64,000 nt of DNA, taken from assembly GCA_963665325.3 (NCBI GenBank), contig CAXXWS020000002.1, forward strand, positions 960,001-1,024,000. Direction: 5' to 3'. Position 1 is the first letter of the stretch, and the number at the start of each line of letters is the position of its first letter. The DNA comes from Alphaproteobacteria bacterium (GTDB lineage: Bacteria; Pseudomonadota; Alphaproteobacteria; Bin95). The notes under the pieces were generated by a model that was not told where the DNA came from, did not search any database, and saw only the letters and a list, made by a program, of their open reading frames with translations. Shown one piece after another: positions 28,514 through 64,000 of this stretch. A program made the translations under genes and the position numbers.

Positions 28514-28722
28514 CCGGCCTCGGACGGAGAAGGTTTTCTTCCGACTTCAAGGGTGGCGCAGGGAATGCATGCCGATTTCCGCGCCCTCTTGTTTCCTCTT
28601 TTGTTCCGAACCATTCTGTCGTGCCGTTACGGGCAGCGGCCCCCGGCCGGGCGACCCGCCGACTTGACGATACCGGGACGCCGCAGCTAGACGTGAGTGC
28701 AGGAGGCAGTCAACGCCGTTCC

Positions 28723-36072: not shown

Positions 36073-39000
36073 ATGGTCGCGACGTTCGTCGAGCTCAGGT
36101 CTTCGGCCGTCACGGTCTCCTATTTCGAGCGGGACGGCTACTACGCGAAGAACGACCCGGAGCACCGACAGGCAAGCTTCTGGCACGGGGGCGCGGCGCA
36201 GGCGCTGGGCCTGAAGGGCCATGTGCGCCCGAAGCGGTTCGAGGCCGTGCTTGCGGGGTTCGTGCCGGGCACGGACATCCGGCTGGGGCGGATGCGCGAG
36301 GGCGAGCGCGATCACCGCCCCGGCTGGGACCTTACCTTCTCGGCGCCGAAGTCGGTGTCGATCGAGGCGCTGGTGATGGGCGACCGGCGGGTGATCCGGG
36401 CGCATGACGAGGCGGTGCGCGCGACGCTCGACTGGGTGGAACGGGACCTGTTGCAGACGCGGGGGTGGGACCCGGCGACGCGGCGGCGCCCGCGGGTGAA
36501 GGCGGGCGGCATGGTCGCGGCCGGGTTCCGGCACCTGACCAGCCGCGACCGGGACCCGACGCTGCACACGCACTGCGTGCTGGCCAACATGACGCGCAAT
36601 GCGGCCGGCGAGTGGCGCAGCGTCGAGCCGACAGCCATCAAGTGGAACAAGAAGCTGATCGGGTCCTATTACCGCAACGAGCTGGCGCGGCGGCTGGAGG
36701 CGCTCGGCATGGCGGTCGCGCCGCGGCTGGTCGGACGCATCCCGGGGTTCGAACTTGCGGGCTACTCGCGCGATTTCGTCGAGGCGTTCTCGGCCCGGCG
36801 GCTGGCGATCGAGGCGGACCTGAAGCGCCGCAACCTGCCATACACGGCGAAGAACGCGCAGGCGGCGGCGCTGCGCACCCGCAGGCGCAAGAGCGAGGAG
36901 AGCCTGGCGGACCTCGTGCCGGAATGGCGCGCGCGGGTCCGTGAGCTGGGCCTCGTGCGCAAGAAGGCGGAGCTCGCGCCGCCCCGGCCGCTCGACCCGG
37001 TGACAGGCGAGCGGACGGCGCCGCCATGCATGCCGGCGCTCCATATGACGGCGAACGAGCTCAGGCGGCAGAGGCGCGCGCCGGCCCTGCCGAAGCTGCC
37101 GCGCGACGGGGCGGCGGTCCGGGCGGACAAGGCGTCCCTGCGGCTGGCGCGCTCGACGGCGCGGGCGGAACTCTCATATGAGCCGGCGCCAGGCCTGCCG
37201 GAAGCGGTCGCGCGCGCGGTGGCGCATGTCGAGGAACGGCGGGTGCGCATCCCGGAGGCCGAGATAAGGGCCGTTGCGCTCGGCCATGCGCCGGGGCGCT
37301 ACACGCTGGCAGAGGTCGATACCGCCATCGCACGCCTGGTGCGGAGCGGCGAGCTGGTCGAGACCGGGAGCCGGGGCGCTGACCGGGCCTTCGTCACCGA
37401 CCGCGCCGTGAAGACCGAGCGGCGCATGCTGGCGTCGATGCGCGCGGCGCGCGGCGAGGGGCGGGCCGAAGCGGACCCGGACACGGTCGCCGCACGGCTC
37501 CGGGAGAGCGGCCTCACGAGCGGCCAGCAGCAGGCGGTCCGCACGATCCTGCTCTCCCTCGACCGGATCGTCGGCGTGCAGGGCCATGCCGGCAGCGGCA
37601 AGACCACCATGCTGCGCACGGTGAAGGAGTTGCTGGACGGCAGGACGATCATGGGCCTTGCGCCCTCGGCGTCGGCGGCCAGGGTTCTGGCAAGGGAGGC
37701 GGACATCCCGTCCCGGACGCTGCAATGGTTCCTCACCCGCCACGGGGACCTATCCGATCCCGCGCGGTTCGCCCGGGCGCGGGCGGAGTTCGGGCGCGCG
37801 GTGCTGGCGGTGGACGAGGCCTCGATGATCGACACGGTGCGCATGGAGGCGCTGCTCCGGATCGCGCGCACCCTCGGCGTGGCCCGCATTGTCCTGGTCG
37901 GCGACACGGCGCAGCTCAGGGCCGTCGATGCGGGCCAGCCCTTCCGCGTGCTGCAGAAGGCCGGCATGGCGACGGCGCTCATGGACGAGGTGCTGCGCCA
38001 GAAGGACCCGGAGCTGAAGACGGCGGCGGGCAGCGCCCGGGCGGGCGAGCCGGGTGCCGCCATCGCCGGCCTGGGCCGGCGGGTGCATGAATATCCCCGC
38101 GAGGAGCTGGGACTGGAGGCGGGCCGGCGCTGGCTGGCGCTCTCGCCGGAGGACCGCGCCGACGCCCTCATCCTGGCGCCCACCCATGCGATCCGCCGGC
38201 AGGTGAACGAGACCGTGCGCGAGGGGCTGGCGGCGGAGGGTCTGCTGCACGGGCGCGTGCTCGCGATCGACCGCCTTGTGGACCGCCGCCTGACGCGCGC
38301 GCAGGCCTCCGACATACGCAGCTACGAGCCGGGCGACACCATCGTCTTCCACCGCGACGTCTTCGGCTGCCGGACGGGCGACGTCTGCATGGTGACGGGC
38401 AAGGATGAGGGGCATGTGGCGATGGACGGCCCGGACGGCGGCGAGCGCCGGTTCCGGCCCTCGGGCAATGCGGCGGCATATTTCGGGCTCTACGACGCGG
38501 AGCGGATCGAGGTCATGGCGGGCGACCGCATCCGCTGGACCCGCAACCGCAAGGCCCCGCCCGCGCGGTTCGGCCATCCTCGTCAGCCGGACCTGGTAAA
38601 CGGCGGCGAGGCGGAGATCGTGGAGATTGACCGCCAGCGGGTGCTGTTCCGCGACGATGCCGGCCGGACGTTCCCGCTCCGGCGCAAGGACCCCCAGCTT
38701 CGCCACCTGGACCATGCATACGGCTCCACCGTGCATGGCGCGCAGGGCCGCACCGCGCGCGCCGTCATCGCGGTGCTGGACGCGCACGGCGCCGTCGACC
38801 GGGCGATGTTCCACGTCGAGGTGAGCCGGGCCTCGGAGTCGTTCCTGCTGCTGACCGACGACCGCGAGGCGCTGGTGGAGATGCTGGAGGTGCGCCCCGA
38901 CCGCGAGGACGGCGCACTGGAGGCGCTCGGGCTCGACCCGGCCGCTCTGCCCGTCGTCGAGCCGGAGCTGTTCGAGGCGCTGGCGGCGGACTGGCGCACC

Positions 39001-40911
39001 CTGCAACGGCAGGGCGAGGAGACGGATACGCCGCCGTTCCTGCTTCCGGGCGCAGACGAGGTCATGGCGCGCGCGGTCGCGCTCTCCCTCGTTGAGGAGT
39101 TGCCGGCGGATATGCGGGCATTCGTGGACGGCATGCTGGCGGAACACGAACGCCATGCCGCGCATGAGCGGGACGCGCGGGGCCTCATGGAGCGCCTCCG
39201 CGCGCACTGGTGGCGCTGGCCGGAGCTCGGCTGGCTGGCGTCGGCGCAAGGCTGTGCGCCCGAGGAGCTGCCGGAACATGCCGCCTGGCGCGAGGAGGGC
39301 GCGGCGCTGCTGGCCGAGGCGCGCGGTCTGGAAGCGATGCCGGGTCTTGCCGCCGGGCTTGAGGGCGAGATGGCGGCGCTGGAACGCATGAGGCTGCGCG
39401 ACGATTGCGAACGGTTCCGACGGGACCGGGTGGCGCTCGGCGCGAGCGCCGTCCGCGCGGGCGTGCCGGAAGTGCACCTGGAGGGCTGCGCGGAGGTCGC
39501 CGAACTGGCCGGACGGCTCTCGGAAGCCGAAAACATCGACCCGGCCGACCGGCGCATTGCCGTGTTGTGGCTGAGGGTCCATGACCGGCAGTCGGCGCTT
39601 GCCGATGCGGTCCGCTCCCTGCCGGGCCGGATGGAAGCATGGCGGGCGCGGCGGGAAGCCGACCTGCCGCTCGACGGGCATGGCGGGGCCGATCCGGTCG
39701 ATCCCGCCTGCCGCGCCTGGCGCGAGGAGGGCGACGCGCTCAGGGACGAGACGGAGGCCATGCTCAGGGCGGGAAGCCCCCACCGCCGCCACATGGACGC
39801 CATGCCGGGCGCGCGGGAGGCCGTCGCCGTGGCGCTTGCGGAGATCGACGGCGCGGTCTTTGAGGACCGCTACGGGCGGTTCGCCTGGTTGGCGCGGCAT
39901 GTGGCGGGAAGGGCGAGGGAGACTGAAACCGAACCCTGCTACGTGCCCCGCTTCCGCGAGGCGGTCGCGCATGCCGCCGTGCTCCACGGCGAGGACGCTC
40001 TCACCGAAAACGGCAGCAAGGCCGTCGCCTCCTGGCTCGACTATGACCTGACATGCGAACGGCTCCGCCGGGAGATCCGGGACTGGCCGGCGCGCGCCGA
40101 TGCGCTCGCGGGCGAACGGATGGGGCCGGGGAGTGACCTCGGAGCGATGCGGCGGTGGCGCGCGGGGGCGGAGCCGTTGCTGGCCAACGCCCGCGCCATG
40201 CTGGCGGGGGGAAGCCCGCATGCGCCCCACCTGACGGCCATGCCGGAGGAACGCAAGCTGCTGGTCGAGACCGCCGGCCGGCTCGGCGGCGCGCTTGTCG
40301 AAGTCGAGACGGCGGAACTGGGCCGCCTTGCGGAGATCGCCGAAGAGGCCGCCGAACGAGCCGGCGGCATCGCGTTCGACACGGACGAATTTGCCGAACT
40401 GATGGAGCGCGTGCATGCGCTCGACGCCCGCCCCGCCCTGCCGGACAATCTGCGCGAGGCCGTCCGGGGCCATCTCCAACGGCATGAGCGCCTGGAGGAA
40501 GACCGCGCCAATGTCGATGCGTTCCTCGACCTCGCCGGCCAGCTGCTGCACGACCGCGACCGCATGGACCGCACGCCTCCCGAGGGCCGGGCGCAGGCGG
40601 CGCTGCCGCTCACATGGGAGGAATGGAAGCGGGACGCCGACGCGATACTCGCGAACGCAGGATCCCTCCGGCGGGACATTCCGGAACGGGAGCTCAAGGC
40701 CCATCTCGCCGCCGCTCGCGCCGGGCCCGGCGCCATCGAGGAAGCCGCCGGAAATATCGCGGACCGGATCGGGCAGGACGAGAAAGCCCGCGCCGCCGCA
40801 GAGCGGAAGCGCCAGGCCGGGGAACAGGCCCGGATCGCTGCCGAGCAGCGGAGGCTCGAAGAAGAACGCAGGCGGGACCGGAGCGAAGGCGGCGGAATAT
40901 CCATGTCGTAG
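36073..40911 (+). CDS. trwC: MOBF (TrwC/TraI-like) relaxase-helicase
   Basis: SYFERDGYY tyrosines, DLTFSAPKSVS, HLTSRDRDPTLHTH, GHAGSGKTT, VDEASM, HAYGSTVHGAQG. Confidence 0.92.
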   Translation: MVATFVELRSSAVTVSYFERDGYYAKNDPEHRQASFWHGGAAQALGLKGHVRPKRFEAVLAGFVPGTDIRLGRMREGERDHRPGWDLTFSAPKSVSIEALVMGDRRVIRAHDEAVRATLDWVERDLLQTRGWDPATRRRPRVKAGGMVAAGFRHLTSRDRDPTLHTHCVLANMTRNAAGEWRSVEPTAIKWNKKLIGSYYRNELARRLEALGMAVAPRLVGRIPGFELAGYSRDFVEAFSARRLAIEADLKRRNLPYTAKNAQAAALRTRRRKSEESLADLVPEWRARVRELGLVRKKAELAPPRPLDPVTGERTAPPCMPALHMTANELRRQRRAPALPKLPRDGAAVRADKASLRLARSTARAELSYEPAPGLPEAVARAVAHVEERRVRIPEAEIRAVALGHAPGRYTLAEVDTAIARLVRSGELVETGSRGADRAFVTDRAVKTERRMLASMRAARGEGRAEADPDTVAARLRESGLTSGQQQAVRTILLSLDRIVGVQGHAGSGKTTMLRTVKELLDGRTIMGLAPSASAARVLAREADIPSRTLQWFLTRHGDLSDPARFARARAEFGRAVLAVDEASMIDTVRMEALLRIARTLGVARIVLVGDTAQLRAVDAGQPFRVLQKAGMATALMDEVLRQKDPELKTAAGSARAGEPGAAIAGLGRRVHEYPREELGLEAGRRWLALSPEDRADALILAPTHAIRRQVNETVREGLAAEGLLHGRVLAIDRLVDRRLTRAQASDIRSYEPGDTIVFHRDVFGCRTGDVCMVTGKDEGHVAMDGPDGGERRFRPSGNAAAYFGLYDAERIEVMAGDRIRWTRNRKAPPARFGHPRQPDLVNGGEAEIVEIDRQRVLFRDDAGRTFPLRRKDPQLRHLDHAYGSTVHGAQGRTARAVIAVLDAHGAVDRAMFHVEVSRASESFLLLTDDREALVEMLEVRPDREDGALEALGLDPAALPVVEPELFEALAADWRTLQRQGEETDTPPFLLPGADEVMARAVALSLVEELPADMRAFVDGMLAEHERHAAHERDARGLMERLRAHWWRWPELGWLASAQGCAPEELPEHAAWREEGAALLAEARGLEAMPGLAAGLEGEMAALERMRLRDDCERFRRDRVALGASAVRAGVPEVHLEGCAEVAELAGRLSEAENIDPADRRIAVLWLRVHDRQSALADAVRSLPGRMEAWRARREADLPLDGHGGADPVDPACRAWREEGDALRDETEAMLRAGSPHRRHMDAMPGAREAVAVALAEIDGAVFEDRYGRFAWLARHVAGRARETETEPCYVPRFREAVAHAAVLHGEDALTENGSKAVASWLDYDLTCERLRREIRDWPARADALAGERMGPGSDLGAMRRWRAGAEPLLANARAMLAGGSPHAPHLTAMPEERKLLVETAGRLGGALVEVETAELGRLAEIAEEAAERAGGIAFDTDEFAELMERVHALDARPALPDNLREAVRGHLQRHERLEEDRANVDAFLDLAGQLLHDRDRMDRTPPEGRAQAALPLTWEEWKRDADAILANAGSLRRDIPERELKAHLAAARAGPGAIEEAAGNIADRIGQDEKARAAAERKRQAGEQARIAAEQRRLEEERRRDRSEGGGISMS

Positions 40912-41159: not shown

Positions 41160-41477
41160 CTACCGGCGGCCGATGGTACTGTCGTTACCGTCCGAGCCCA
41201 TGGCGCGCATAACCAGATGGTCGGTAACGTCATTGAAGTAGAATTGCAGTTCGGTCTGAAGCTGGCTGAACTCGGCCCATACCACGCGGTCGAAGGACCG
41301 TCCGGGGGCCCGCACCATGACGATTGTGCGCCGCTGCCGCGCATAGCGGAAGGGGTGTAGGCCGTGCTTGCGGCAGACGGCGACGAACAACCTGACCGAC
41401 CACATGTCGGGCAGCGAGAACCGGAGCTCGGTTTCCGGTCCGCCGTCGCTGCCGATATTCGTCACCGTCGCGACCAT
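41160..41477 (-). pseudogene. Conserved hypothetical protein, probably 5'-degraded
   Basis: FSLPDMWSVRLFVAVCRKHG...RYARQRRTIVMVR resembles a recurrent mobile-element hypothetical family; no convincing N-terminus. Confidence 0.45.
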
Positions 41478-41720
41478 GGCGCCATCCTGCCCCGGAGGGC
41501 GGGACAAGGGCAGCCGCATTCCGCGCCGCCTGCGGGCGCCGGTCCTGTCTGTGCCGTCCTCGCCCGGCGCCCGGTCGTCGAATTTTGTTGCATGACGGTT
41601 TTGCGGCGATTATTGGGCCGTTGTTGAGGGTTGAATGTGTATCGGAGGACATGGCGATGGGTGCGTTTTCGTTTCGCGGCTTGTTGCGTGCGCTTCTCTT
41701 GATTAAGATCAAGTCATCCG

Positions 41721-42003
41721 GCCGGATCGCCGGATCGCCGGATCGCCGGATCGCCGGATCGCCGGATCGCCGGATCGCCGGATCGCCGGATCGCCGGATC
41801 GCCGGATCGCCGGATCGCCGGATCGCCGGATCGCCGGATCGCCGGATCGCCGGATCGCCGGATCGCCGGATCGCCGGATCGCCGGATCGCCGGATCGCCG
41901 GATCGCCGGATCGCCGGATCGCCGGATCGCCGGATCGCCGGATCGCCGGATCGCCGGATCGCCGGATCGCCGGATCGCCGGATCGCCGGATCGCCGGATC
42001 GCC
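41721..42003 (+). repeat. Simple sequence repeat (GCCGGATC)35
   Basis: 35 perfect 8-bp units at 41721-42000 plus GCC. Confidence 0.97.
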
Positions 42004-42026
42004 CCACCTGCGTCCGCGTGACGGCC

Positions 42027-45000
42027 ATGAGCGTTTCTGCATGGCTGCGCCGGCCGGGCTGTCCTTCCTCCCCGCCTGAGTCTTCGCACGCCGGCGGCGA
42101 GCGTTCGCCTTCCCGCCGGCCCCCCAACGCTTCCGACAGTCTCGATGCTTCTTCCGCGCGCGGCGTCGTCGCGCGCGTGGGTTCCGCCATCCGCCGGCTG
42201 CGCCCCGCCCTCGCGGCTGCGCTGCTCTCCCTGCCGCTCTTCGCCGGCCTGACCACCGGGGCCGCCGCGCAGTCGGCGGTCGAGTGCAGCACCGCCAATG
42301 ACGAGGGCTCCTACACGGTGCCCGTCAACTGGGCGCTGAAGCCCTCGGGCGTCGCCGCCGGCGGTAAGTTCCGGCTGCTGTTCATCACCTCGACCACGCG
42401 CGACGCCACGGCGACCGGTATCGCCACCTACAACACGCATGTGCAGACCGCCGCCAAGGCCGGGCACAGCGCGATCTCCGACAGTTGCGGCAATCTCTTC
42501 AAGGTTGTCGGCTCGACCTCCGCGGTGGACGCGCGCGACAACACAGGGACCACGGGCACGGGGGTGGAGATATACTGGCTGAACGGCAACAGGCTCGCCA
42601 ACAACTACGCCGACTTCTACGACGGGAGCTGGGATGATTACGGCAGGAAAAACGAGAGTGGAGGCGATACGAACGACAATATCGTCACCACAGGCAGCAA
42701 CAATGACGGCACTAAACACTCATGGTTCTTAGGTGATACCTTCGTAGTTCGGCAAGGTAACGCGGGCGATTCGACCGCAGGACCTTTGGATGAGAGTAGT
42801 AATGGTGTTCCTGGTGCTTCATCACATCATTTCTACGGCCTCTCCCCCGTCTTCAAGGTGGAGGCCGCAAGCGAGTACACGATCAGCTTCGATCCGGCGG
42901 TTTACACTTTGTCCGAGGCCGATGGGTTCGTCGACGTGACCGGCACTCTGTCGGCGGCGCAGACGAGGGCTGTCACCATACCGTTCCGCTACGAATTCCC
43001 GGACCCAGGCGCCGGATACCGGAATTTCTCCCCCGTGCCCTGGGTGACCGTCCCTGCGGGGCAGACGAGTTTCACCCTGCGCGTCCCGATCCTCGACAAC
43101 AGCCTGTTCGAGAATAACGATCTTGTCGTTATCACTGTGCCGGGGGATGCGAGCGCAAGGGCCGACCTCGTCATCCTGGACGACGAGACCGCCAGGGGCT
43201 ACGCGACTCACGAGGCCTCGGATGGCAGTTACTCATGCATCAGCCGGGGCAGGGACATCCTGGTGGATGACCAATCGGGCGGCACGATAGCGGTTCAGCA
43301 GCCCGGCTGGTGGGTGGGCCAGCCGCCGCCGGGTCTGGTGGTGGACTGGGACCGGGACAACTACGCGGTCGGCGACACCGCGACGATCACGTTCCGCACG
43401 TCGGACGGCTCGCGCTCCTGCGCCGGCATCGAATTCTGGCTCAGCGTGAGCCAGAGTCCCCACCAAACGTGGAATAACGGGCTGCCGCCGCAGCCGGCGG
43501 TACTCCAGTTCCCCAGAGACAGTCACCGCGTGTTCGTAACGCTGGGCCGCGGCCAGACGGAGGTCAGCCGGTCGTTCAAGGTCCTGGCGCCGGGCATGGC
43601 GATTTTCCAGATCAAGAAGGTGTCGAACAGGACCCCCTGGAACCTGGGCCGTCTGGGCGCCAAGCTGCGCGACATGCCGACACCGGTGGACCGCGACGGA
43701 ACCGCGCTGACGGTCAGCCGGGACCTGTGGGGGGCGGGGGCCGCCACCGAGGTGACGGCGACCGTCCACCCGGGCGTGTACTTCCAGTCGGCATCGCGGG
43801 AGGTGCAGGAGGATGCCGGGACGGTGAACCTGACGGTGGCCGTCAATCCGCCGCCGGCCACGTCCCATACGCTCGTCTACACCCTGTCCGGAACCGCGAC
43901 GTGGGACGACGACTACAACATTGCTGGCGCGACCGATAGCGGCGGCGCCGTTACGGTGCCCGCGAATGCCGGCAGCGTGACCATTCCGGTGACGATCGTC
44001 GACGACTCGGTCGATGACGACGGCGAGACAATCGTGGTCCGTCTGGCGACGAGCGGCGATTACCGGCCCGCCACGCCCGACAGCGTGACGCTCACGATCC
44101 GCAATCACGATCCGGTGCCCGAGCCGGAGGTGAGCATCGCGGCCGGGGCCGGCGTGACCGAGGGCGGCAGCGCGAGTTTCACGCTGACGGCCGATCCGGC
44201 GCCGACGGCGCCGCTGGACGTGAGCGTGACGATTGCCGCCGAGGGCGAGTTCGGCATTGCGGCCGGCGAGCGGACCGTCACCATCCCGACCACGGGCAGT
44301 TATGAGCTGACCCTTGCGACGGCGGGCGACGGCGTGGACGAGCCCGATGGCTCGGTGACCGCGACGGTGTACGCCGGCAACGGCTACACGGTCGGCGCCG
44401 CTTCCTCCGGGACGGTCGCCATCGCGGACGACGACGCGCTTCCCGCCGCCCATCCGCTGGTGAAGCATGCGCCGGTGGTCAAGCGGTTCTTCGACCGGAT
44501 CACGGCGAGGAACCAGCACGGCAACGGCGCCGCCGGGGGATGGAACAAGCGCTTCCTGAAGGCGATGGGGCACCCGGACTATGTCGACTACCCGCAGGCC
44601 GCGGTGACGGTGGCGGATGCGACGCGGATATGGAACCACGGCGGTCCCGGCGCCAACACGGCCTGGAACGGCACGGTCGCGGCGGTGACCTATGCCGAGC
44701 GGTATTTCGCCGGGCTGGTGACGCCGCCCGATCCGGTACTCATTCCGGAGATCTCCATTGCGGCGGGTGCCGGCATTACCGAGGGCGGCGATGCGGTATT
44801 CACGGTGACGGCGGACCGGGCACCGGATGCCAACCTCTCTGTGGCGCTCACGGTGTCGGAAGCCCAGGGCAGCGACTTCGTGGCCGCGTCCGACGAGGGC
44901 ACGAAGACGGTGACCGTCCTTGCCGGCGAGACTTCGGGCACGCTTACCGTGAAGACGGAGGACGACAGGGCGGACGAGCCCGACGGCTCGGTGACCGCGA

Positions 45001-46976
45001 CATTGGCAGCCGGCAGCGGCTACACGGTGGCGGCGTCCCCGCAGGACGCGGCCTCGGTTGCGGTGGCCGACAACGACGCGGCGGGCGCTCTGCCGGTGCT
45101 TTCCGTGGAGAGCAAGTCGGTGCAGGAAGGCGACGGGAAGGTGACGTTGTGGGCCACCATCGACCCGTTCCCGTCGAAGGCGGATTTCCCGGAACTTTAC
45201 AGGACGACCCGGCTGAAGCTCCGCACCATCGAGGGGACGGCATGGGACGGTGTCGACTATGTCGGCATCCCCGCCAGCTTCGGGATCACGGAGGCGTGCA
45301 ATTTCCACACCACCCTGGCGCCGAACGGGAAGCACGGGTGCCGGATCGACGAGGTGACGATTCTGGACGACTCCCATGACGATGGCGGGGAGACCTTCCA
45401 GCTTGAGGTGGGATTCGCGGACAACGAGCCGGCGCCGCTGCGCGGCCTGGGCGAGGCGCGCGGCACGGTCACCATCGAGAACTCGGACCCGCTGCCGGGG
45501 GCATGGCTGGCGCGGTTCGGTCGTGCGGTGGCGGAACAGGCTCTGGACGGCATTACGGCCCGCATGGCGGCACCACGCACGCCGGGCATGCAGGGCACGA
45601 TTGCCGGGCAGTCTCTCGACTTCAGCGGCGGGGCAAGCCTGTCTCAGTCCCCCGGATCGTTGTCCGGGGCAGGCGGGGCAAGCTTCGGCGGGGAGACGCA
45701 GGCGCAGGCGCGGGGCATGACGATGCAGGAGGTTCTGCGGGGGTCGAGCTTCTCGCTGACCGGCGAGGCGGACAGCGTCGGCGGCACGCTTGCCTTCTGG
45801 GGCGGGACGCCCGGTGCGGGCGGTCTTGTGTCCGGGTCGCAGTTTGCCGGCAATCAGCGCGGCGACCCCGGATCGGGGTCCGGGGCAGGCGGCACGGCGG
45901 TGCATCTCAGCGGCGAGACGAGCGCGGCGCTTCTGGGCACGGACTATGCGCAGGGCCCGTGGCTGGTCGGGTTCGCACTGTCGCAGAGCCGGGCCGAGGG
46001 CAGCTATGCGGCCATTGGCGGCGATGTGGCGGCGCACGCAAGCGACGGCGAGGTTGAGGCATCATTGACGGCGACGATCCCCTATGCGGCGCTGGCGGTC
46101 TCGGAGCGGTTGAAGCTCTGGGGTGCTGCGGGCCAGGGGTCCGGCGATGTGACGGTGAAGACCGCGCTGGGCGGGAGCCTCAGCGCCGACACGGCCTGGA
46201 GCATGGCGGCGGCGGGCCTGCGGGGCGACCTGCTGGCTCCTTCTGCCGAGGGGACAGGGCCGTCCCTGGCGCTGGTATCGGACGCCTTGTGGGTGCAGAC
46301 CGCGTCGGAGAAGACGCGCGACCTTGCGGCGTCGGAGTCCGATGTGAGCCGGCTCAGGCTGGGCCTTGAGGGCAGCTGGGGACTGGCGCTGGCCGGCGGC
46401 GGCAACATTGTGCCAAAGCTGGAGCTTGGGGCGCGTCATGACGGCGGCGATGCGGAGACGGGCTTCGGGGTGGAACTCGGCGGCGGTCTTGCCTGGCGCG
46501 ACCCGGGCCTCGGGCTGACGCTCGACCTGTCGGGGCGCACGCTGGTCGCGCATAACGATGGCGGGCTGGAGGACCGGGGTATCTCGGCACAGCTCGCCTT
46601 CGACCCGGAGCCTGCGAACGGTCGGGGCCTGTCCTTCGGCCTCGGCCAGGACTGGGGCGGGCGGGCGCAAGGCGGCCTCGACACGCTGTTCACGCCGGAG
46701 CCGCTGGAGGACCGCGAGGGCAGCAGCGAGGCGGAGGCGCGCTGGACGGCGGAGGCGGCCTGGGGCTTCCCGGCGTTCGACGGGCGTTTCACCGGCAGCC
46801 CGCATGTCGGGTTGGGGCTTACGACGGACGCGCGCGACTACAGTCTCGGCTGGCGGCTGACGCCGGAAGCCGCGACCGCGCCCGACCTCTCCTTCGGTCT
46901 CAGGGCGACACGTAGGGAAAGCGGCAACGCCCGGCCGGAGCATACCGTCGGCGTGGACATTACGGCGCGGTGGTAA
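42027..46976 (+). CDS. Autotransporter-like adhesin 1: lectin-like N-domain, Calx-beta repeats, C-terminal beta-barrel
   Basis: Signal h-region LAAALLSLPL...AAAQ; FRLLFITSTTRDAT domain; VTEGG...DDxxDEPDGSVT repeats; RHDGGDAETGFGVELGGG barrel ending in Trp. True start may be 41657 (see findings). Confidence 0.85.
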   Translation: MSVSAWLRRPGCPSSPPESSHAGGERSPSRRPPNASDSLDASSARGVVARVGSAIRRLRPALAAALLSLPLFAGLTTGAAAQSAVECSTANDEGSYTVPVNWALKPSGVAAGGKFRLLFITSTTRDATATGIATYNTHVQTAAKAGHSAISDSCGNLFKVVGSTSAVDARDNTGTTGTGVEIYWLNGNRLANNYADFYDGSWDDYGRKNESGGDTNDNIVTTGSNNDGTKHSWFLGDTFVVRQGNAGDSTAGPLDESSNGVPGASSHHFYGLSPVFKVEAASEYTISFDPAVYTLSEADGFVDVTGTLSAAQTRAVTIPFRYEFPDPGAGYRNFSPVPWVTVPAGQTSFTLRVPILDNSLFENNDLVVITVPGDASARADLVILDDETARGYATHEASDGSYSCISRGRDILVDDQSGGTIAVQQPGWWVGQPPPGLVVDWDRDNYAVGDTATITFRTSDGSRSCAGIEFWLSVSQSPHQTWNNGLPPQPAVLQFPRDSHRVFVTLGRGQTEVSRSFKVLAPGMAIFQIKKVSNRTPWNLGRLGAKLRDMPTPVDRDGTALTVSRDLWGAGAATEVTATVHPGVYFQSASREVQEDAGTVNLTVAVNPPPATSHTLVYTLSGTATWDDDYNIAGATDSGGAVTVPANAGSVTIPVTIVDDSVDDDGETIVVRLATSGDYRPATPDSVTLTIRNHDPVPEPEVSIAAGAGVTEGGSASFTLTADPAPTAPLDVSVTIAAEGEFGIAAGERTVTIPTTGSYELTLATAGDGVDEPDGSVTATVYAGNGYTVGAASSGTVAIADDDALPAAHPLVKHAPVVKRFFDRITARNQHGNGAAGGWNKRFLKAMGHPDYVDYPQAAVTVADATRIWNHGGPGANTAWNGTVAAVTYAERYFAGLVTPPDPVLIPEISIAAGAGITEGGDAVFTVTADRAPDANLSVALTVSEAQGSDFVAASDEGTKTVTVLAGETSGTLTVKTEDDRADEPDGSVTATLAAGSGYTVAASPQDAASVAVADNDAAGALPVLSVESKSVQEGDGKVTLWATIDPFPSKADFPELYRTTRLKLRTIEGTAWDGVDYVGIPASFGITEACNFHTTLAPNGKHGCRIDEVTILDDSHDDGGETFQLEVGFADNEPAPLRGLGEARGTVTIENSDPLPGAWLARFGRAVAEQALDGITARMAAPRTPGMQGTIAGQSLDFSGGASLSQSPGSLSGAGGASFGGETQAQARGMTMQEVLRGSSFSLTGEADSVGGTLAFWGGTPGAGGLVSGSQFAGNQRGDPGSGSGAGGTAVHLSGETSAALLGTDYAQGPWLVGFALSQSRAEGSYAAIGGDVAAHASDGEVEASLTATIPYAALAVSERLKLWGAAGQGSGDVTVKTALGGSLSADTAWSMAAAGLRGDLLAPSAEGTGPSLALVSDALWVQTASEKTRDLAASESDVSRLRLGLEGSWGLALAGGGNIVPKLELGARHDGGDAETGFGVELGGGLAWRDPGLGLTLDLSGRTLVAHNDGGLEDRGISAQLAFDPEPANGRGLSFGLGQDWGGRAQGGLDTLFTPEPLEDREGSSEAEARWTAEAAWGFPAFDGRFTGSPHVGLGLTTDARDYSLGWRLTPEAATAPDLSFGLRATRRESGNARPEHTVGVDITARW

Positions 46977-48224: not shown

Positions 48225-50300
48225 TTACGCTTCATACTGCGCCCCAGTACTTCGTTGCCCCACAAGATCGGGGAAACGTCCTTGTTTTGAAGTCTTTGGT
48301 TGTTTGGCAGGTGGTGGATCGGGGAGTTCGAACAGGTATCCGGGTTTGTCGTTATAGGCGTGTCCGCGCAGAAGGCCGGCCCTGTGCCATCGGTATACCG
48401 TTTCGTCGGACACCCCGAGCCGGTTGGCGGCTTCCAGGGCGGTCAACAGCCCGAGTTCGCGCAGCCGTTGATGGCGGGACTTGAGAGCGTATTTGTCCCG
48501 GACCACCCTTACCAACATCGGATTGAAGGCGTGGCCGTATCCGCTTCGGTACCCGCGCTCGTTGAGGATTGTTGCGATCTCGCCGATGGTGTGGTCGTTC
48601 AACAGCCTGTCGACCTCGGCGACGACATCGTTGCTGGTCTTGTGGATTTCAGACGCGAGTGGACCCGGTTTCCAGGTAAGCTGTCGGGTCGCGCCACCGC
48701 GCAGCCGCACCCCCAGGCTGCGCGTAGCCTTGGTCAGTGTCACGTCCTCGATCAGCAGCCGCGCCATTCGCTTGCGCTCGCGGTGCGGCGTCGCCGGATC
48801 GTTCCACAGACGGGGGAAGTCACTGACCAGCGCGAGGATTCGCTCGCGTTGCCGATCGTCCAACCTCTGGCCCGGTTCAGCGCGGCTGCACTCGAGCTCG
48901 CGCTGTGCCTCGTCGAGGGCCCGAAGCTTCGCATTCCACTCCGCCTCCAGCACGTTGGCCACCATCCGGTTGTCGGGATGGGTCTGCATGAACCGCTGCC
49001 GCGCCAAGTCCGCTTCCTCGCGGGCGCGCTGAACCCGTTGAGCGCGCCACAGATCCGCCTCCCCGGCGCGTGCGGCGAGTTCGTCCTGTACCTGCAGCGC
49101 CATGTCCAGCGTGAGCGGTGTCATCAGCTCGACCAGCAGCTCGCCAATCGCTTGGTCTATGGCGCCGCCGGATATGCTCTGACAATTCCCGGCGCCCGCC
49201 GTCTCGATCTTTTCACGGGCGCACAGGTAGTAGGGGTTCAGCCCCCCTTTGCGGCTGCGATAGTGCACCGTCATGTTCCTGCCGCACACGCCGCAAATGG
49301 CCAGGCCCTGCAGCAGTGCGGGCCCCTCGCGCGGCGCACTGCGGCGCCCCGCGGCGCGCGCTTGAGCGTTGTCCCGGAGCTGGCGCTCATTCTCCTCGAA
49401 CCGCTCCCAGGTGATATAGCCCGGGTGGGCATCGCGCAGCAGGACTGTCCATTCCTCGCGTGCCAGGCGTTTCTTCTCGGCGCCCCCTCCGGGACGCCGC
49501 CGGCTGCGGCTGCGCCCGAACGCGAAAGCGCCGGCGTATCGCGGGTTGTGCAGAATCTGCAGCGCGCGCGTGAGCTTCAGAGGCTTCCAATGCAACTCGC
49601 CCCTGTGCGGCCCGCTGCGAGGACGGTACGGAAACAGCAATTTCTCGTTGTTGAAATGCCTGACCGTGGCGCTGGCCGAGCCGGTCCTGGTGAAGGTGTC
49701 GAACAGCAGGCGCAGACTGTGCTGCACCTGCTCGTCGGGGTCGAGCGCCACATTGCCGAGTGGGTCGTATACCAGCCCCACCGGCAGCGTCATCCTCAAC
49801 TCCCCGCGCTTGGCCTTGGCCAGCACTCCGCCCCGCATCCGGGCGCGCATCATGTGCAGCTCGGCCTCGCTCATGGTTCCTTTGAGCCCGAGCAGGAGCC
49901 GGTCGTTGAAGTCGCCGGGATCGTAGACGCCGTCCTCGTCGAGGATCAGCGTCTCGCTCAGGGCGCATATCTCGAGCAGGCGATGCCAATCGGTGGAGTT
50001 CCTCGCGAGCCTGGACACTTCGAGCCCGAGCACGATGCCGGCCCGGCCCATGCCGGCCTCGGCGACCAGACGCTGGAACCCCTCTCGGTCGGCGTCGGCG
50101 CCGGAGAGACCGAGATCGCTGTCGATCACGACGATGCTCTCGGTCGGCCAGCCCAGTGCCACGGCCCGCTCCCGCAGCGCGTACTGGCGCCGCGTGCTCT
50201 CGCCATGTTCGAATACCTGGCGCTGAGTAGACTGACGCACATACAGATAGGCATCGCGGCTCAGGTGGCTCGTCGTCACCTTCTGGTGAGCGGGATTCAT
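48225..50300 (-). CDS. Large serine recombinase (resolvase + recombinase + Zn ribbon + C-terminal HTH)
   Basis: YLYVRQST catalytic Ser, EVSRLARN, NPRYAG, LLQGLAICGVCG; ATG 50300. Confidence 0.92.
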   Translation of the reverse strand: MNPAHQKVTTSHLSRDAYLYVRQSTQRQVFEHGESTRRQYALRERAVALGWPTESIVVIDSDLGLSGADADREGFQRLVAEAGMGRAGIVLGLEVSRLARNSTDWHRLLEICALSETLILDEDGVYDPGDFNDRLLLGLKGTMSEAELHMMRARMRGGVLAKAKRGELRMTLPVGLVYDPLGNVALDPDEQVQHSLRLLFDTFTRTGSASATVRHFNNEKLLFPYRPRSGPHRGELHWKPLKLTRALQILHNPRYAGAFAFGRSRSRRRPGGGAEKKRLAREEWTVLLRDAHPGYITWERFEENERQLRDNAQARAAGRRSAPREGPALLQGLAICGVCGRNMTVHYRSRKGGLNPYYLCAREKIETAGAGNCQSISGGAIDQAIGELLVELMTPLTLDMALQVQDELAARAGEADLWRAQRVQRAREEADLARQRFMQTHPDNRMVANVLEAEWNAKLRALDEAQRELECSRAEPGQRLDDRQRERILALVSDFPRLWNDPATPHRERKRMARLLIEDVTLTKATRSLGVRLRGGATRQLTWKPGPLASEIHKTSNDVVAEVDRLLNDHTIGEIATILNERGYRSGYGHAFNPMLVRVVRDKYALKSRHQRLRELGLLTALEAANRLGVSDETVYRWHRAGLLRGHAYNDKPGYLFELPDPPPAKQPKTSKQGRFPDLVGQRSTGAQYEA

Positions 50301-50599
50301 GCGGCTTCCCTCCCCATATGACCGTTGAGCATGGCGATCAAAATGTCGATCGCCGACGTCTCGACCCCGGTGGGCAACGGCCCGGGCGAGGTCGCCGGGC
50401 ACAGGGCGGGCGGCGGGGCAGGCAGTTCGGCGAGGGCATGCAGCCAGGCCGCGACGCCGCGCAGCGCCACCAGGGCGATCCCGTGGCGGTCGTGGGCGGC
50501 GCCGGGCTCGACGGCATGACGGCGCATCCGCTCGTAACCGTGCCCGTAGGCGGAATGCTCCGCCGCGGCGAGCGCGGCGCAGGGCGGGTTGTGCATCAT
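50297..50599 (-). CDS. Small hypothetical protein of the LSR element
   Basis: YERMR...RGVAAW; ATGA overlaps with both neighbours. Confidence 0.7.
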   Translation of the reverse strand: MMHNPPCAALAAAEHSAYGHGYERMRRHAVEPGAAHDRHGIALVALRGVAAWLHALAELPAPPPALCPATSPGPLPTGVETSAIDILIAMLNGHMGREAA

Positions 50600-59735: not shown

Positions 59736-60333
59736 CGCGCGGAGTCGCCCCGGGTTGCCGTCACCGGCAGGTCCTCGTACCGATCCGGACCAGATCGCCG
59801 CCCGGCGTCGAGAGTCGCCATGATGGAATCGCCCGGAGGTCTCATGTCGTTGGCCTGACGACGATACGACGCTCGCCATGCGTGAGCCCGCAGGCGCCGT
59901 CGTGCCCTCGGGCGTCGGTGTCGCCCGCGCAACCGGCGCAGCGAACCGCGGCCGTGGCGAAGGCGGTTGAGCGAAGCATGGCCACGACTATACCGCCCAA
60001 TCGGTGGCGTTCGACAGCGGCGCGGCCAATCCCTTCGAGAGAGAGGCGGAGCCCGACATCGTTCCTGGGCTCGGCCCGCTTGATGTGGATGCGTGTCGTG
60101 ACGTCCGTCCCTCGGGTGCGTCCGACCCGGCGCCGGCTGAGCGTCGGTCGGCGATGGTGGTCAAGGTGTGCGTCGCGCGGCGTTCGCTCTCTGTCGGCGT
60201 TCATTGTATTGATTTGCCGCCGGGTTCGGTTTACGGTTTGCGCAAGTGGGACAGGCGATGCTTGGCGGGATTGTGTGCGGCGTCGGACGGGGCGCGGGAC
60301 GGTCAGCCGGGCGACAGGTTCGGAGGCGACACG

Positions 60334-63300
60334 ATGACCATGACGGACAAGACGCGTGACGTGCTGCGCGCGACGGGAGCGAGTGTTCTGGAGGCGCTGG
60401 GTCTGGACGGCAAGGCGAACGAACTGTTTTCGTCCGGGGGGTTGACAAGCGCCGCTGAGGGTTCCGACAGTATAATGGTCGCCGGGTCGCCGGGTCGCCG
60501 GGTCGCCGGGTCGCCGGGTCGCCGGGTCGCCGGGTCGCCGGGTCGCCGGGTCGCCGGGTCGCCGGGTCGCCGGGTCGCCGGGTCGCCGGGTCGCCGGGTC
60601 GCCGGGTCGCCGGGTCGCCGGGTCGCCGGGTCGCCGGGTCGCCGGGTCGCCGGGTCGCCGGGTCGCCGGGTCGCCGGGTCGCCGGGTCGCCGGGTCGCCG
60701 GGTCGCCGGATCGCCGGATCGCCGGATCGCCGGATCGCCGGATCGCCGGATCGCCGGATCGCCGGATCGCCGGATCGCCGGCCATGAGTGCGTCCGGCGC
60801 ATGGCTTCGCCGGCTCCGCTCCCGCCCGCCGTCCTCCCCGCCTGAACCTTCCCGTTCCGCGGTCCGGCGGCTGCGTCCCGCCCTTGCCGCCGCGCTGCTC
60901 TCCCTGCCGCTCCTGGCGGGCCTTCCGACCGGGGCGCAGGCCCAGGTCGCGTGCGGTACCGCCAATGCCGACGGCTCGTACCCGGTGCCGGACAACTGGG
61001 CGCTGAAGCCCTCGGGGCTCGGCGTCGGGGCCAAGTTCCGGCTGCTGTTCGTGACCTCCACCCAACGCGACGCCACGGCGACCGACATCGCCACCTACAA
61101 CACGTATGTGCAGACCCGCGCCAAGGCCGGTCACAGCGCGATCGCCGACAGCTGCGGCAACCTCTTCAAGGTCGTCGGTTCGACCTCGGCGGTGGACGCG
61201 CGCGACAACACCGGGACCACCGGCACGGGCGTTCCGATCTACTGGCTGAACGGCGCCAAGGTCGCCGATAACTACGGCGACTTCTACGACGGAACCTGGG
61301 ACAGCTACGGCTTTGCGAACGCGAAGACTGAGAGCGGAGGTGCCGCTGTGTTGGGTAATGCGCATACCGGCAGCAACGCTGACGGCACCAAGCATGGCTT
61401 TTATCTCGGCCACGGCAGCGCGGTTAGACGTGGCACGATTCAAAGTGGTGGTAATCCGTTAACTCAGGCCGTATCCCCCCCTACGAGTGCCCACACGTTC
61501 TACGGCCTCTCCCCGGTATTCTCGGTGGTTGTGGCTCCGCTCGCCGCCAAGCCGTCCACGGTACGCGAGGGGGGTGTCAGTTTTGTCACCGTCACCGGTT
61601 TTCCGTCCAGCTGGGGCGCGCCCCGGATAAGGTCCCTTGCCGGCGCCACGACGTCGCTCAGGTGCGACCATGTGACTGACGGGCTGTCCAACTCTGGTAA
61701 CAACCTCGATGTCTGCGTCGGCCTGGCCGACGGCACCCGCACCCGGGGGCATTGGGACGGCGTCGCGTACAGGCTGACGCTGACCGTGGTGGCCGACGGC
61801 GTGGCCGAGAACGAAAGCCTCACGGTGACGTTCGAGGATTCGACCGACACCAGCAGGACCAGGACGGCCGTCATCGCGCTCGACGACAGGTCGCCCCTGC
61901 CGTTCGTCAGCCTCGAAGCGGTTGTCGGCACCAATCCCGGCAACGTGGTTTCCCCGACCCCGCATACCGTCACGGAGGGGGGTGCGTTCAACCTCCGGGT
62001 GAAGATGGATCCCTGGTTCAGGCTGGCCACTCCGGTCATCGTGAACTACTACCTCGCCGACTACCACGGCGAGCGTGTGGTCCGGGGGCCGAGCCTCACG
62101 GATCCGAAGCGGGATCGGGACCCCAACCCCCGGAGCATCGAGATCGGGGCCGGGCATTCCGCTACGGTCATTCACATACCGACCGTGGCGAGCCCCGACC
62201 TCGATGGCGACAGCAAGGTGGAGGTCATCCTGCTGGGCGGCAGGGACTATGCGACCAGCACGGGCAAGCTGACGCTCACGGTCCAGGACGCGGACCCGGT
62301 CACGAACATAGACGACAACACGCGGGCGCAGATGCTGGCCACGCCCTCGACGCTGACGCTCGGCGCCGATGCGGCTTCGGTGACGGAGGGCGGCGAGGTG
62401 ACCTTCACGGTCACGGCCGCCCCGGCGCCGGGCTACGACCTCCCGGTGCACCTGGGCGCGTCGGAGGAGATGGGCGCGGGCCTGGACTATATCGGGCTCG
62501 AACGGGCCCGCACGGTGACGATCCCGGCGGGCGCGACCTCGGCGGCCTGGACGGTCACGACCTGGTCGGACGACAAGCAGCGCGCCGACGGCACGGTGGT
62601 GGCCCGGATCAAGCCGGGCGACGGCTACACGGCGGGCACGCCGTCGACGGTCACCGTGGCCCTGCTCGACGACGACGCGCCGGCGCTGGACCCGTCGCTG
62701 GTGGCGCAGGTCAGAATACTTGCGGGGCAGACCCATAACGGCGCGGCGCATGTCCTGCGCTGGCGGCGGGTGCTGGTGGCGTTCGGGGTGGAGGCGTATC
62801 CGGGCGTGACGGCGATGACGGCGGCGCAAGCCGAGGCGAATGCCCGTCGCTACAGCAGCCCGCTCTGGCCCCGGATCGCGGAGGCGATCGGGGCGATCGG
62901 GGCGGCGGGGAGCGACCCCGCGCCGCAGCAGGCCGCGACGCAGCAGGCCGCACCGGCGGTGGACCCGGCGCTGGTTGCGCTGGTCAGGAGCTACGCGGCG
63001 GAGACCCATAACGGCGCGGCGCATGTGGAACGCTGGATGCGCGTGCTCGCGGCTTTCGGCGAAGACAACGGCCGTGCGCCGATGACGGCGGCGGAGGCGC
63101 GGACCTATGCCGACCGGGGCTGGACACGCTGGGACCCGGTGGTCGTGGCGATCGCGGCGCTGGAAGCGGCGCCCGAGCCGGAGCCGCAGCCCGTAATCCC
63201 GCCGGCGGTGAGCGTCGCGGCCGGGGAGGCGGTCTCCGAAGGCGGCGGCGCGGTGTTCACGCTCACGGCGGCGCCGGCCCCGGCATCGCCGCTGGCGGTC

Positions 63301-64000
63301 GAGGTGACGGTTGGCGCCGAGGGCGACTTCGGCATTGCCGCCGGCGCGCGGACGGTGACCGTTCCGACGAGCGGCAGCCTCGTGCTGACCCTGGCGACGG
63401 TCGATGACGGTACGGACGAGCCGGACGGCTCGGTGAGCGTGACCCTGAACGGCGGCGACGGCTACACGGTCGGTTCCCCGGCATCGGGCGCCGTCGCCGT
63501 GACGGACGACGACCTGCCGCCGCCGGTGGTCTCGGTGACGGCGAAGGCCGGCTCCATTACCGAGGGGGCGGGCGCGGTGTTCACGGTGACGGCGGACCGG
63601 GCGCCGGATGCGGCGCTTGCGGTGCGGCTCACGGTCTCGGAGGAAGCGGGCAGCGACTTCGTGGCCGCGGGCGACGAGGGCGGTCGCACGGTGACCATCC
63701 CGGCCGGCACGACCGGGGTTGCGCTCACCGTGGCGACGGACGACGACGCGGCGGACGAGCCCGACGGCTCGGTGAGCGCGGCGGTGGATGCCGGCGCGGG
63801 CTACACGGTGGCGGCGTCTCCGGGGGATACGGCCTCGGTCGCGGTGGCCGACAACGACGCGGCGGCCACCGGGGCGTCGCTCTCGGTGGACGACGCGACG
63901 GTGAAGGAAGGCGCGGGGCTGATGTGGTTCACGCTCCGGCTGAGCGCGCCGTCGGAGCGGGCGGTGCGGGTGTCGTACCGGACCCGGGAGTCGAGCCCGG
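60334..64000 (+). CDS. Adhesin 2 (paralog of 42027-46976), running off the window; absent from the ORF track
   Basis: SD GGAGG 60322-26 and ATG 60334, in frame with ATG 60475, the repeat and ATG 60784 (MSASGAWLRR...LAAALLSLPL...AQAQ); same N-domain and Calx-beta repeats. Confidence 0.85.
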   Translation, partial: MTMTDKTRDVLRATGASVLEALGLDGKANELFSSGGLTSAAEGSDSIMVAGSPGRRVAGSPGRRVAGSPGRRVAGSPGRRVAGSPGRRVAGSPGRRVAGSPGRRVAGSPGRRVAGSPGRRVAGSPDRRIAGSPDRRIAGSPDRRIAGSPAMSASGAWLRRLRSRPPSSPPEPSRSAVRRLRPALAAALLSLPLLAGLPTGAQAQVACGTANADGSYPVPDNWALKPSGLGVGAKFRLLFVTSTQRDATATDIATYNTYVQTRAKAGHSAIADSCGNLFKVVGSTSAVDARDNTGTTGTGVPIYWLNGAKVADNYGDFYDGTWDSYGFANAKTESGGAAVLGNAHTGSNADGTKHGFYLGHGSAVRRGTIQSGGNPLTQAVSPPTSAHTFYGLSPVFSVVVAPLAAKPSTVREGGVSFVTVTGFPSSWGAPRIRSLAGATTSLRCDHVTDGLSNSGNNLDVCVGLADGTRTRGHWDGVAYRLTLTVVADGVAENESLTVTFEDSTDTSRTRTAVIALDDRSPLPFVSLEAVVGTNPGNVVSPTPHTVTEGGAFNLRVKMDPWFRLATPVIVNYYLADYHGERVVRGPSLTDPKRDRDPNPRSIEIGAGHSATVIHIPTVASPDLDGDSKVEVILLGGRDYATSTGKLTLTVQDADPVTNIDDNTRAQMLATPSTLTLGADAASVTEGGEVTFTVTAAPAPGYDLPVHLGASEEMGAGLDYIGLERARTVTIPAGATSAAWTVTTWSDDKQRADGTVVARIKPGDGYTAGTPSTVTVALLDDDAPALDPSLVAQVRILAGQTHNGAAHVLRWRRVLVAFGVEAYPGVTAMTAAQAEANARRYSSPLWPRIAEAIGAIGAAGSDPAPQQAATQQAAPAVDPALVALVRSYAAETHNGAAHVERWMRVLAAFGEDNGRAPMTAAEARTYADRGWTRWDPVVVAIAALEAAPEPEPQPVIPPAVSVAAGEAVSEGGGAVFTLTAAPAPASPLAVEVTVGAEGDFGIAAGARTVTVPTSGSLVLTLATVDDGTDEPDGSVSVTLNGGDGYTVGSPASGAVAVTDDDLPPPVVSVTAKAGSITEGAGAVFTVTADRAPDAALAVRLTVSEEAGSDFVAAGDEGGRTVTIPAGTTGVALTVATDDDAADEPDGSVSAAVDAGAGYTVAASPGDTASVAVADNDAAATGASLSVDDATVKEGAGLMWFTLRLSAPSERAVRVSYRTRESSP
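60477..60781 (+). repeat. Compound SSR (GCCGGGTC)28(GCCGGATC)9
   Basis: 28 units at 60481-60704, 9 units at 60705-60776, partial units on both sides. Confidence 0.97.

Follow-up and report, generated by a model that had tools for sequence, protein, structure and literature searches.

This study concerns a 64,000-nucleotide (nt) stretch of an alphaproteobacterial genome (lineage Bin95; contig CAXXWS020000002.1, positions 960,001 to 1,024,000, forward strand), hereafter the window, in which a long tandem array of an octamer separates a Shine-Dalgarno (SD) sequence and start codon from the gene of a giant surface protein, adhesin 1. The host genome (G000) is assembled in five contigs, 5.58 Mb in total with 67% G+C, and the window locus and the unit counts given here are assembly-derived. 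The locus comprises the following features.

41644..41649 (+): Shine-Dalgarno sequence GGAGGA of the leader open reading frame (ORF), found in the sequence; an SD-like motif occupies the same place in homologous flanks
41657..42079 (+): leader ORF in the 35-unit register; it encodes MGAFSFRGLLRALLLIKIKSSG, then (RIAGSPDR)n, and ends with the TGA at 42077-42079
41721..42003 (+): perfect tandem array (GCCGGATC)x35.4; Tandem Repeats Finder (TRF), 100% matches, 0 indels, score 566
42019..42021 (+): TGA that ends the third array frame; it lies 5 nt ahead of ATG 42027, and this register applies at 34 or 37 units
42027..46976 (+): adhesin 1 gene, 1649 amino acids (aa), Calx-beta surface protein; Calx-beta E 5e-18, probable autotransporter beta-domain by ESM Atlas
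42027..42272 (+): N-terminal Ser/Pro/Arg-rich extension (MSVSAWLRRPGCPSSPPESS...) and signal-peptide-like segment RRLRPALAAALLSLPLFAGLTTGAAAQ; coding signature in 13 loci

The first-pass annotation of this DNA had placed 35 octamers between the SD with ATG 41657 and the signal peptide, in agreement with the TRF result and the exact GGAGGA. Two ATG codons follow the SD (41651 and 41657), of which the second lies 7 nt past GGAGGA. The annotation had the frame of ATG 41657 crossing the tract and stopping at 42079, and the ORF listing agrees: this ATG is contained in an open frame at 41585..42079, the terminal TGA of which is 50 nt beyond ATG 42027. The distance from 41657 to 42027 is 370 nt (1 mod 3), and because each unit adds 8 nt (2 mod 3), the two ATG codons come into frame at 36 units, when they are 378 nt apart, or at 33 units (354 nt), the same unit numbers at which the annotation had the leader fused to the adhesin. 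Upstream, the adhesin frame is shut by a TGA at 41700-41702, the stop that had been reported at 41700, and the tetramers GGAG, GAGG, and AGGA are absent from the 20 nt preceding ATG 42027 (cctgcgtccgcgtgacggcc), in line with the earlier statement that no clear SD precedes this codon. The GCCGGATC array is free of stop codons in all sense frames, and each of the three frames encodes the same 8-residue periodic peptide, AGSPDRRI.

The length of the window array is far beyond chance. A genome-wide TRF search (period ≤12, score ≥60) returned 15 arrays, with six octamer arrays of the family described below among the top eight.

A structured leader was considered and rejected, as the array folds worse than shuffled sequences, both as DNA (z +4.3) and as RNA (positions 41640-42100, z +5.6, none of 100 shuffles folding less well).

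A Family of Array-Fronted Genes in the Genome and Genus

The host genome harbors six octamer arrays, of 32, 14, 35, 37, 13, and ∼34 units, distributed over four of its five contigs, and each lies 7-26 nt upstream of the conserved ATGA start (MSxxAWLRR..SSPPES) of a family gene. The encoded length is 1649-1965 aa for five of these genes and 98 aa for the sixth, which is truncated. A seventh family member is found where contig C2 begins, 10 nt before its ATG (G000 C2 bases 1-260), and no array is present at the other end of C2; an array is probably the point at which the assembly of C2 was broken or linearised. Because this contig starts 10 nt before a family-member ATG, family arrays can break assembly.

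The octamer motif occurs in eight of 16 other genomes of the genus and in none of 24 genomes outside it. When three units were joined as a 24-mer for a contig scan, the matches listed included short coding repeats in many G+C-rich taxa. Family loci were located with a profile built from the extension and signal peptide (alignment A1), which was run against 17 genomes of the genus and recovered 23 loci in seven of them. An array stands directly upstream at 22 of the 23 loci, and the remaining locus is cut by a contig start. Unit length in these 22 arrays is always 5, 7, or 8 nt, never a multiple of three, and the units include the GCCGGATC/GCCGGGTC types, GCCGGATT, AGCCGCCG, GTCAGCCG, GGATGCC, ACGCTCG, AGCCG, and AAGCC; GCCGGGAC and CCCCGGAT (arrays at contig ends) and AGAGCCG occur outside the family table. 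The window unit had been annotated as unusually long and GC-rich; it is not unique, since sister loci use other units of 5, 7, and 8 nt. Truncation has left several members of the family with open frames of 101-348 aa.

Three further heptamer arrays, all perfect, were observed in the host genome. AGAGCCG x14 (G000 C1:1337013-1337112, minus strand) lies in frame between an SD with ATG and a 9-kb ORF with a signal peptide. GCGCCGT x23 (G000 C1:1244758-1244917) follows a leader ORF with TTGACG-N20-TATAAT and has no adhesin behind it, so that its leader looks orphaned. The third is GAGGCGC x18 (G000 C3:709149-709276).

Probable Translation Across the Array

Leader starts were scored by a strict rule, namely GGAG, GAGG, or GGGGG located 5-14 nt upstream of an ATG whose frame opens into the array. 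Such a leader ORF is present at 16 of 20 complete loci, while at 20,000 random positions of the genome the same rule is satisfied at 3.9% per frame; among frames open over 60 nt or more, the figure is 4.7%. Each flank type has an upstream ATG or GTG, together with an SD, that opens a frame into the array. The flank of the window locus (SD, start codon, and short peptide) recurs in the same place in four other genomes (G010, twice, as well as G004, G006, and G015) and in the metagenome contig L217; the latter was the one case in which the motif is followed by an array, itself truncated where the contig stops, in a metagenome scan with a 15-mer of the leader flank that covered the DNA of 80 of 120 match loci.

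The extension downstream of the array was compared across 13 distinct loci. Differences by codon position number 1716/1491/2386, with the third position in excess. Of 3534 codon pairs that differ, 1168 are synonymous, and when the nucleotides are aligned unguided, 44 of the 50 gap runs have lengths divisible by three. Judged by these patterns, the DNA that links array and signal peptide evolves in the manner of coding sequence. Six of the 22 loci (G006:C200, G009:780701, G009:161902, G004:C210, G004:C476, and G010:C273) have no ATG, GTG, or TTG between array and signal peptide, and two more have only GTG or TTG at least 171 nt downstream of the array. Four of the start-less loci lie in open frames of 1343-1950 aa, and the other two are short (G009:780701, 101 aa; G004:C476, 480 aa). 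G006 combines a flank of the window type with five units (40 nt) and, again, no ATG, GTG, or TTG before the signal peptide. At G009:3024151 there is no usable near start after the array, and the gene shares the frame of its own leader; the database protein P0005 is likewise an in-frame fusion of leader, array, and adhesin with no Met past the array. Since the extension is coding, translation at loci that lack a start after the array must pass through the array.

An alternative is that the array is a transcribed, untranslated 5′ leader or a promoter-proximal spacer, with translation always from ATG 42027 and unit number tuning the level or stability of the transcript. The precedent is found in Haemophilus influenzae, where (ATCTTTC)n repeats lie in the 5′ untranslated region (5′-UTR) of hmw1A and expression is described as inverse to tract length (PMC12721329), and in biogroup aegyptius, where the octanucleotide GCATCATC is reported in 12-15 copies upstream of hmwA genes (PMC3309571). 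In both cases, paralogous giant adhesin genes each stand behind a long array of 7- or 8-nt units in 12-30 or more copies (PMC12721329; PMC3309571); hmw is the sole octanucleotide precedent that we found in print, and the nearest in unit and tract length. Promoter-like hexamers are also present. At five of the six octamer loci in the host genome, a perfect TTGACA...TATAAT pair inside the leader ORF ends 0-4 nt before the array (e.g., window 60442-60476; G000 C1:452758, C4:41759, and C5 330652, minus strand), and of 15 such pairs genome-wide with spacers of 10-40 nt, seven flank arrays. The window locus has TTGTTG-N17-TAAGAT ending ∼10 nt before the array, and relatives, by eye, keep the pattern TTGnnn-N17-TAnnnT. 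Moreover, a post-array ATG is present at all 12 loci of G000 and its relative G011.

The hexamer pairs with the array as 5′ leader constituted our first reading, which was dropped over the spacers, the upstream starts, the coding extension, and the start-less loci. The TTGACA-TATAAT spacers are 20, 23, or 32 nt, never 16-18, and all are 2 mod 3, so that both hexamers stay codons of the leader frame (L-T and I-I or I-M), which points to coding constraint. A sigma-70 scan found zero sites at either window locus. Between six and eight of the 22 loci have no usable start after the array even though the extension is coding, and where a start does exist in the window, at ATG 42027, it has no SD. Unit lengths are non-triplet throughout, which a spacer would not need. 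The hmw repeats are untranslated and act by transcript level through a 5′-UTR hairpin and RNase III (PMC12721329), whereas the array here is inside an SD-and-ATG ORF rather than outside any ORF, its RNA is less structured than shuffles, and many loci lack a later start. On this evidence an untranslated array seems rather unlikely, if less clearly so for the window locus by itself.

Unit Number and Reading Register

Translation through the array would make its register depend on unit number, and this number varies. The window contains a second, sister locus with these features.

60322..60326 (+): Shine-Dalgarno sequence GGAGG of the sister leader ORF, found in the sequence
60334..63999 (+): sister locus in the ON register; ATG 60334, 49-aa leader, array, and adhesin form one open frame
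60477..60781 (+): hybrid array of ∼28-29 GCCGGGTC-type (G-type) units followed by nine GCCGGATC-type (A-type) units (TRF and sequence)

The sister frame continues from ATG 60334 past the end of the window and encodes a protein of 1815 aa altogether (P0004). The copy of this locus in another strain (P0003) is also in frame, and P0004 and P0003 have 37 and 19 units, respectively, a difference of 18 units by which the array-encoded repeat peptide of P0003 is 48 aa shorter; in this comparison, only in-frame copies can turn up as such database proteins. At another locus, G000 and G011 have identical leader flanks and 14 versus 21 units, and further arrays in G011 have 4, 10, 19, 19, and 23-24 units.

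The leader is fused in frame with the adhesin at four of 20 loci. In a table of 16 loci, four fused loci stand beside six in which the leader frame stops at −8 or +1 relative to the post-array ATG and six in which it stops ∼50 nt past the ATG. The stops of the last class, at +50 to +59, fall at the conserved CCGCCTGAG, and the window locus in its present state belongs to this class (6 of 16 loci). A stop at +1 represents an ATGA overlap, as every post-array start reads ATGA, and the window TGA at 42019-42021 corresponds to the −8 class. Across loci, the registers look random, as a switch would predict.

The two classes of out-of-frame stop could also be read as functional states. In such a three-state switch, the leader would always be translated; the in-frame register would give the fusion, a stop at 42019-42021 or an ATGA overlap would allow reinitiation at the SD-less ATG, and a stop at CCGCCTGAG, the present state, would let ribosomes pass over the ATG and give the lowest output. 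The conserved places at which these stops fall are consistent with this scheme, and so are the post-array starts, all of which read ATGA, and the lack of an SD at ATG 42027. Early stops in the other frames after a repeat are, however, expected by chance, and the scheme is impossible at loci that have no post-array ATG, which leaves the scheme improbable.

Exchange Between Leaders and Gene Bodies

Identities upstream and downstream of the arrays disagree in several pairwise comparisons. The gene body at G000:C5 is 97% identical to those of two G011 loci, yet the leader flanks of these two bear no relation to that of G000:C5 (64%), and the G000:C5 leader matches two other G011 loci at 89%. Between G000 C1:576871 and C3:1020481, leader identity is 100%, and the gene bodies are unrelated (58%). 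Hybrid arrays occur in both orders, with G-type followed by A-type units at 60477-60781 of the window and A-type followed by G-type units in G011:C1:630942, and they lie at the places where exchanges of this kind would be expected. By these identities, leader flanks and adhesin bodies are re-assorted across arrays, and we infer that the arrays may serve as the crossover sites.

A further alternative is that the arrays have no regulatory role, being neutral or selfish expansions, or scars left by recombination, carried along with a recombining 5′ module of the family, or that their lengths are assembly artefacts. Re-assortment across arrays, hybrid arrays, the several truncated members (101-348 aa), and the breaking of draft assemblies at arrays would all fit. 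Against this, 22 of 23 loci in the seven genomes retain an array, the units are of at least 10 kinds and all non-triplet, and the arrays always lie between an SD with start codon and a coding extension; short arrays within contigs, such as that of 40 nt in G006, cannot be assembly artefacts. An absence of any role is thus very improbable.

Because family loci share the same or related units, a more far-reaching proposal can be made, which we offer tentatively. The arrays might act both as frame switches and as portable recombination joints that couple any leader module, with its start signal and regulatory region, to any adhesin body across replicons. Hybrid arrays would then be records of exchange, with junctions between G-type and A-type units. 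Three levels of output (fusion, reinitiation, and off) would be possible where an ATGA follows the array, and (AGSPDRRI)n would be a tolerated cytoplasmic pre-sequence before an internal signal peptide.

A Candidate Translational Switch at the Window Locus

On balance, we favor the reading that the window locus is a translational contingency switch, here in its OFF register. The proposed pre-protein would consist, in order, of an SD with start codon, a leader peptide (∼20-57 aa), the array translated as a periodic peptide, the extension (Ser/Pro/Arg-rich, ∼30-70 aa), the signal core, the passenger, and the beta-domain. Slipped-strand mispairing or unequal exchange would alter the number of units, and one register in three would bring ribosomes from the leader start into the adhesin frame. 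With 35 units, the window locus is out of register, with its leader frame ending at 42079, and the sister locus at 60334 is in register. The comparison shows the anatomy and its conservation, the coding character of the extension, and between-genome differences in unit number. We infer that the upstream start is used, that high-frequency changes in unit number take place within a population, and that out-of-register copies are silent. As the SD-less ATG 42027 follows the array, OFF may nevertheless mean low rather than zero. The first-pass annotation had described the locus as an apparently phase-OFF simple sequence repeat (SSR) switch; the comparative anatomy, the start-less loci, and the variation in unit number strengthen this description, with the qualification that the OFF state may be leaky through ATG 42027. 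Overall, the frame-switch reading is largely supported by comparison between loci, short of proof for the window locus itself.

Several observations weigh against it. Logan contigs of four DNA runs (X1-X4) all end at the array, so the count of 35 comes from the assembly alone. Within the window flank type, the leader peptide (21 codons) has no codon-position bias, with 72/59/75 differences over 10 pairs, and its conservation could be at the DNA level. An ATG is found within 31 nt past the array at 14 of 22 loci, the window locus included, and database proteins of relatives (P0045, P0096, and P0119) begin at the post-array ATG. In the other flank type, the hexamers abutting the array suggest a promoter inside the leader ORF. 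The "fused" call at G000:C5 hangs on a single 7-nt unit, possibly an assembly error. Finally, Sec substrates do not typically have their hydrophobic signal core over 100 residues away from the N-terminus.

Comparison With Described Systems

Phase variation driven by repeats is textbook knowledge in a few host-adapted pathogens, whose genomes are small and AT-rich and whose repeat units measure 1-5 nt. In Neisseria, the opa genes have CTCTT pentamer repeats in the region coding for the leader peptide. Like the family as proposed here, they constitute a multi-copy family of surface adhesins with independent switching by a 5′ coding repeat and recombination between members, and they differ in unit length, tract length, protein type, and where the tract lies with respect to the hydrophobic core.

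The nearest described system is autA/autB of Neisseria meningitidis, in which AAGC repeats lie in the DNA encoding the autotransporter signal sequence (PMC5118866). The number of AAGC units varies between isolates (2-10 in autB and 5-32 in autA), about one-third of autA copies are in phase, and slippage can restore those that are out of phase (PMC5118866). Shared with the present family, as we read it, are a non-triplet repeat that lies past the start codon, either ahead of an autotransporter export signal or inside it, and an in-phase form that is an N-terminally extended ORF (PMC5118866). The differences are that the unit here is 8 nt (also 5 or 7) rather than 4, with tracts of up to 37 units (296 nt); that the tract encodes up to ∼100 periodic residues ahead of an extension of 30-70 residues, rather than lying inside a signal sequence of normal length; and that an alternative ATG follows the tract at 14 of 22 loci, in a host with 67% G+C and five contigs. 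The badE gene of Bartonella is described as a mononucleotide SSR contingency locus and is similar in that an SSR frameshift switches an adhesin gene (PMC11466379); its tracts are homopolymers in the gene body of a host-restricted pathogen, with no multi-nucleotide arrays and no leader module (PMC11466379).

The repeat sequence itself was found in no paper in the full text of 8.1 million PMC papers and 0.36 million preprints, and literature searches by topic listed no description of such an octamer-array adhesin system. If the frame-switch reading is correct, the principle of phase variation would extend to a genome of 5.6 Mb with 67% G+C, in which a whole family of giant surface proteins would be gated by very long arrays of 5-, 7-, or 8-nt units (up to 37 copies), and up to ∼100 residues of periodic peptide would be translated ahead of a signal peptide. 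The family would then offer natural tests of the length of N-terminal pre-sequence that Sec export tolerates, and of shared repeat tracts as joints that shuffle start modules and gene bodies. Wrong start calls and splitting by gene callers, together with breaks in short-read assemblies at these genes, make database annotation and copy counts of the family unreliable.

The Adhesin and Its Surroundings

The long adhesin ORF (product P0001) extends from either GTG 42018 or ATG 42027 to position 46976. Its product has a Ser/Pro/Arg-rich stretch of 55 residues, followed by the conserved segment RRLRPALAAALLSLPLFAGLTTGAAAQ, which has a typical n-h-c organization; this segment begins ∼55 residues after ATG 42027 and is farther still from the leader start. 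For the C-terminal part (P0001 residues 1151-1649), there was no Pfam match at E up to 10, with PF03797 not called, and a PDB sequence search with the C-terminal part found nothing. In an ESM Atlas feature search with residues 1250-1649, 30 of 30 matches were in clusters of autotransporter beta-domains (best 0.98), and P0001 is therefore predicted to be autotransporter-like, with a probable beta-domain at the C-terminus. An ESPR identity (PF13018) was considered for the leader peptides and rejected, as eight leader peptides gave no Pfam match at E up to 10, nor was ESPR found in the whole proteins.

The first passenger domain, encoded at 42290-43000 (P0001 residues ∼90-280, CSTANDEGSYTVPxNWALKPSG..FRLLFITS..), belongs to no Pfam family. 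It is nonetheless widespread, being matched by 657 database proteins at E ≤ 1e-20, including giant surface proteins labelled by their sources as Chloroflexi/Chloroflexota and as proteins of Acidimicrobiia metagenome-assembled genomes (MAGs). No in-frame version of the window locus is present in the listed 120 of these 657 matches.

Adhesin 1 is flanked by genes for a TrwC/MobF relaxase (36073-40911) and a large serine recombinase (48225-50402, minus strand), and two IS66 copies are also nearby. The suggestion that the switch is carried on a mobilisable element is consistent with these neighbors; adjacency is its sole basis, and the array device itself occurs genome-wide. A tblastn search with the relaxase returned only MobF relaxases below 40% identity, and a megablast search of plasmids returned nothing.

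Several smaller features of the surroundings were also recorded. A 50-nt dispersed repeat at 41451-41500 stands out by a spike in depth in each of the four runs and is present again, exactly, at G000 C1:1219245-1219294. The preceding 150 nt (41300-41455) have counterparts of 78-88% identity in many of the genus genomes, and a mobile element next to the relaxase may end at this dispersed repeat. The two copies of the IS66-family element are in tandem on the minus strand (52975-55362 and 56399-58786), encode identical transposases of 795 aa, and have identical 21-bp direct repeats at 54968 and 58392. Elsewhere in the window, a gene at 28270-30225 encodes a MORN-repeat protein and contains 138-nt tandem repeats (TRF 29185-29502).

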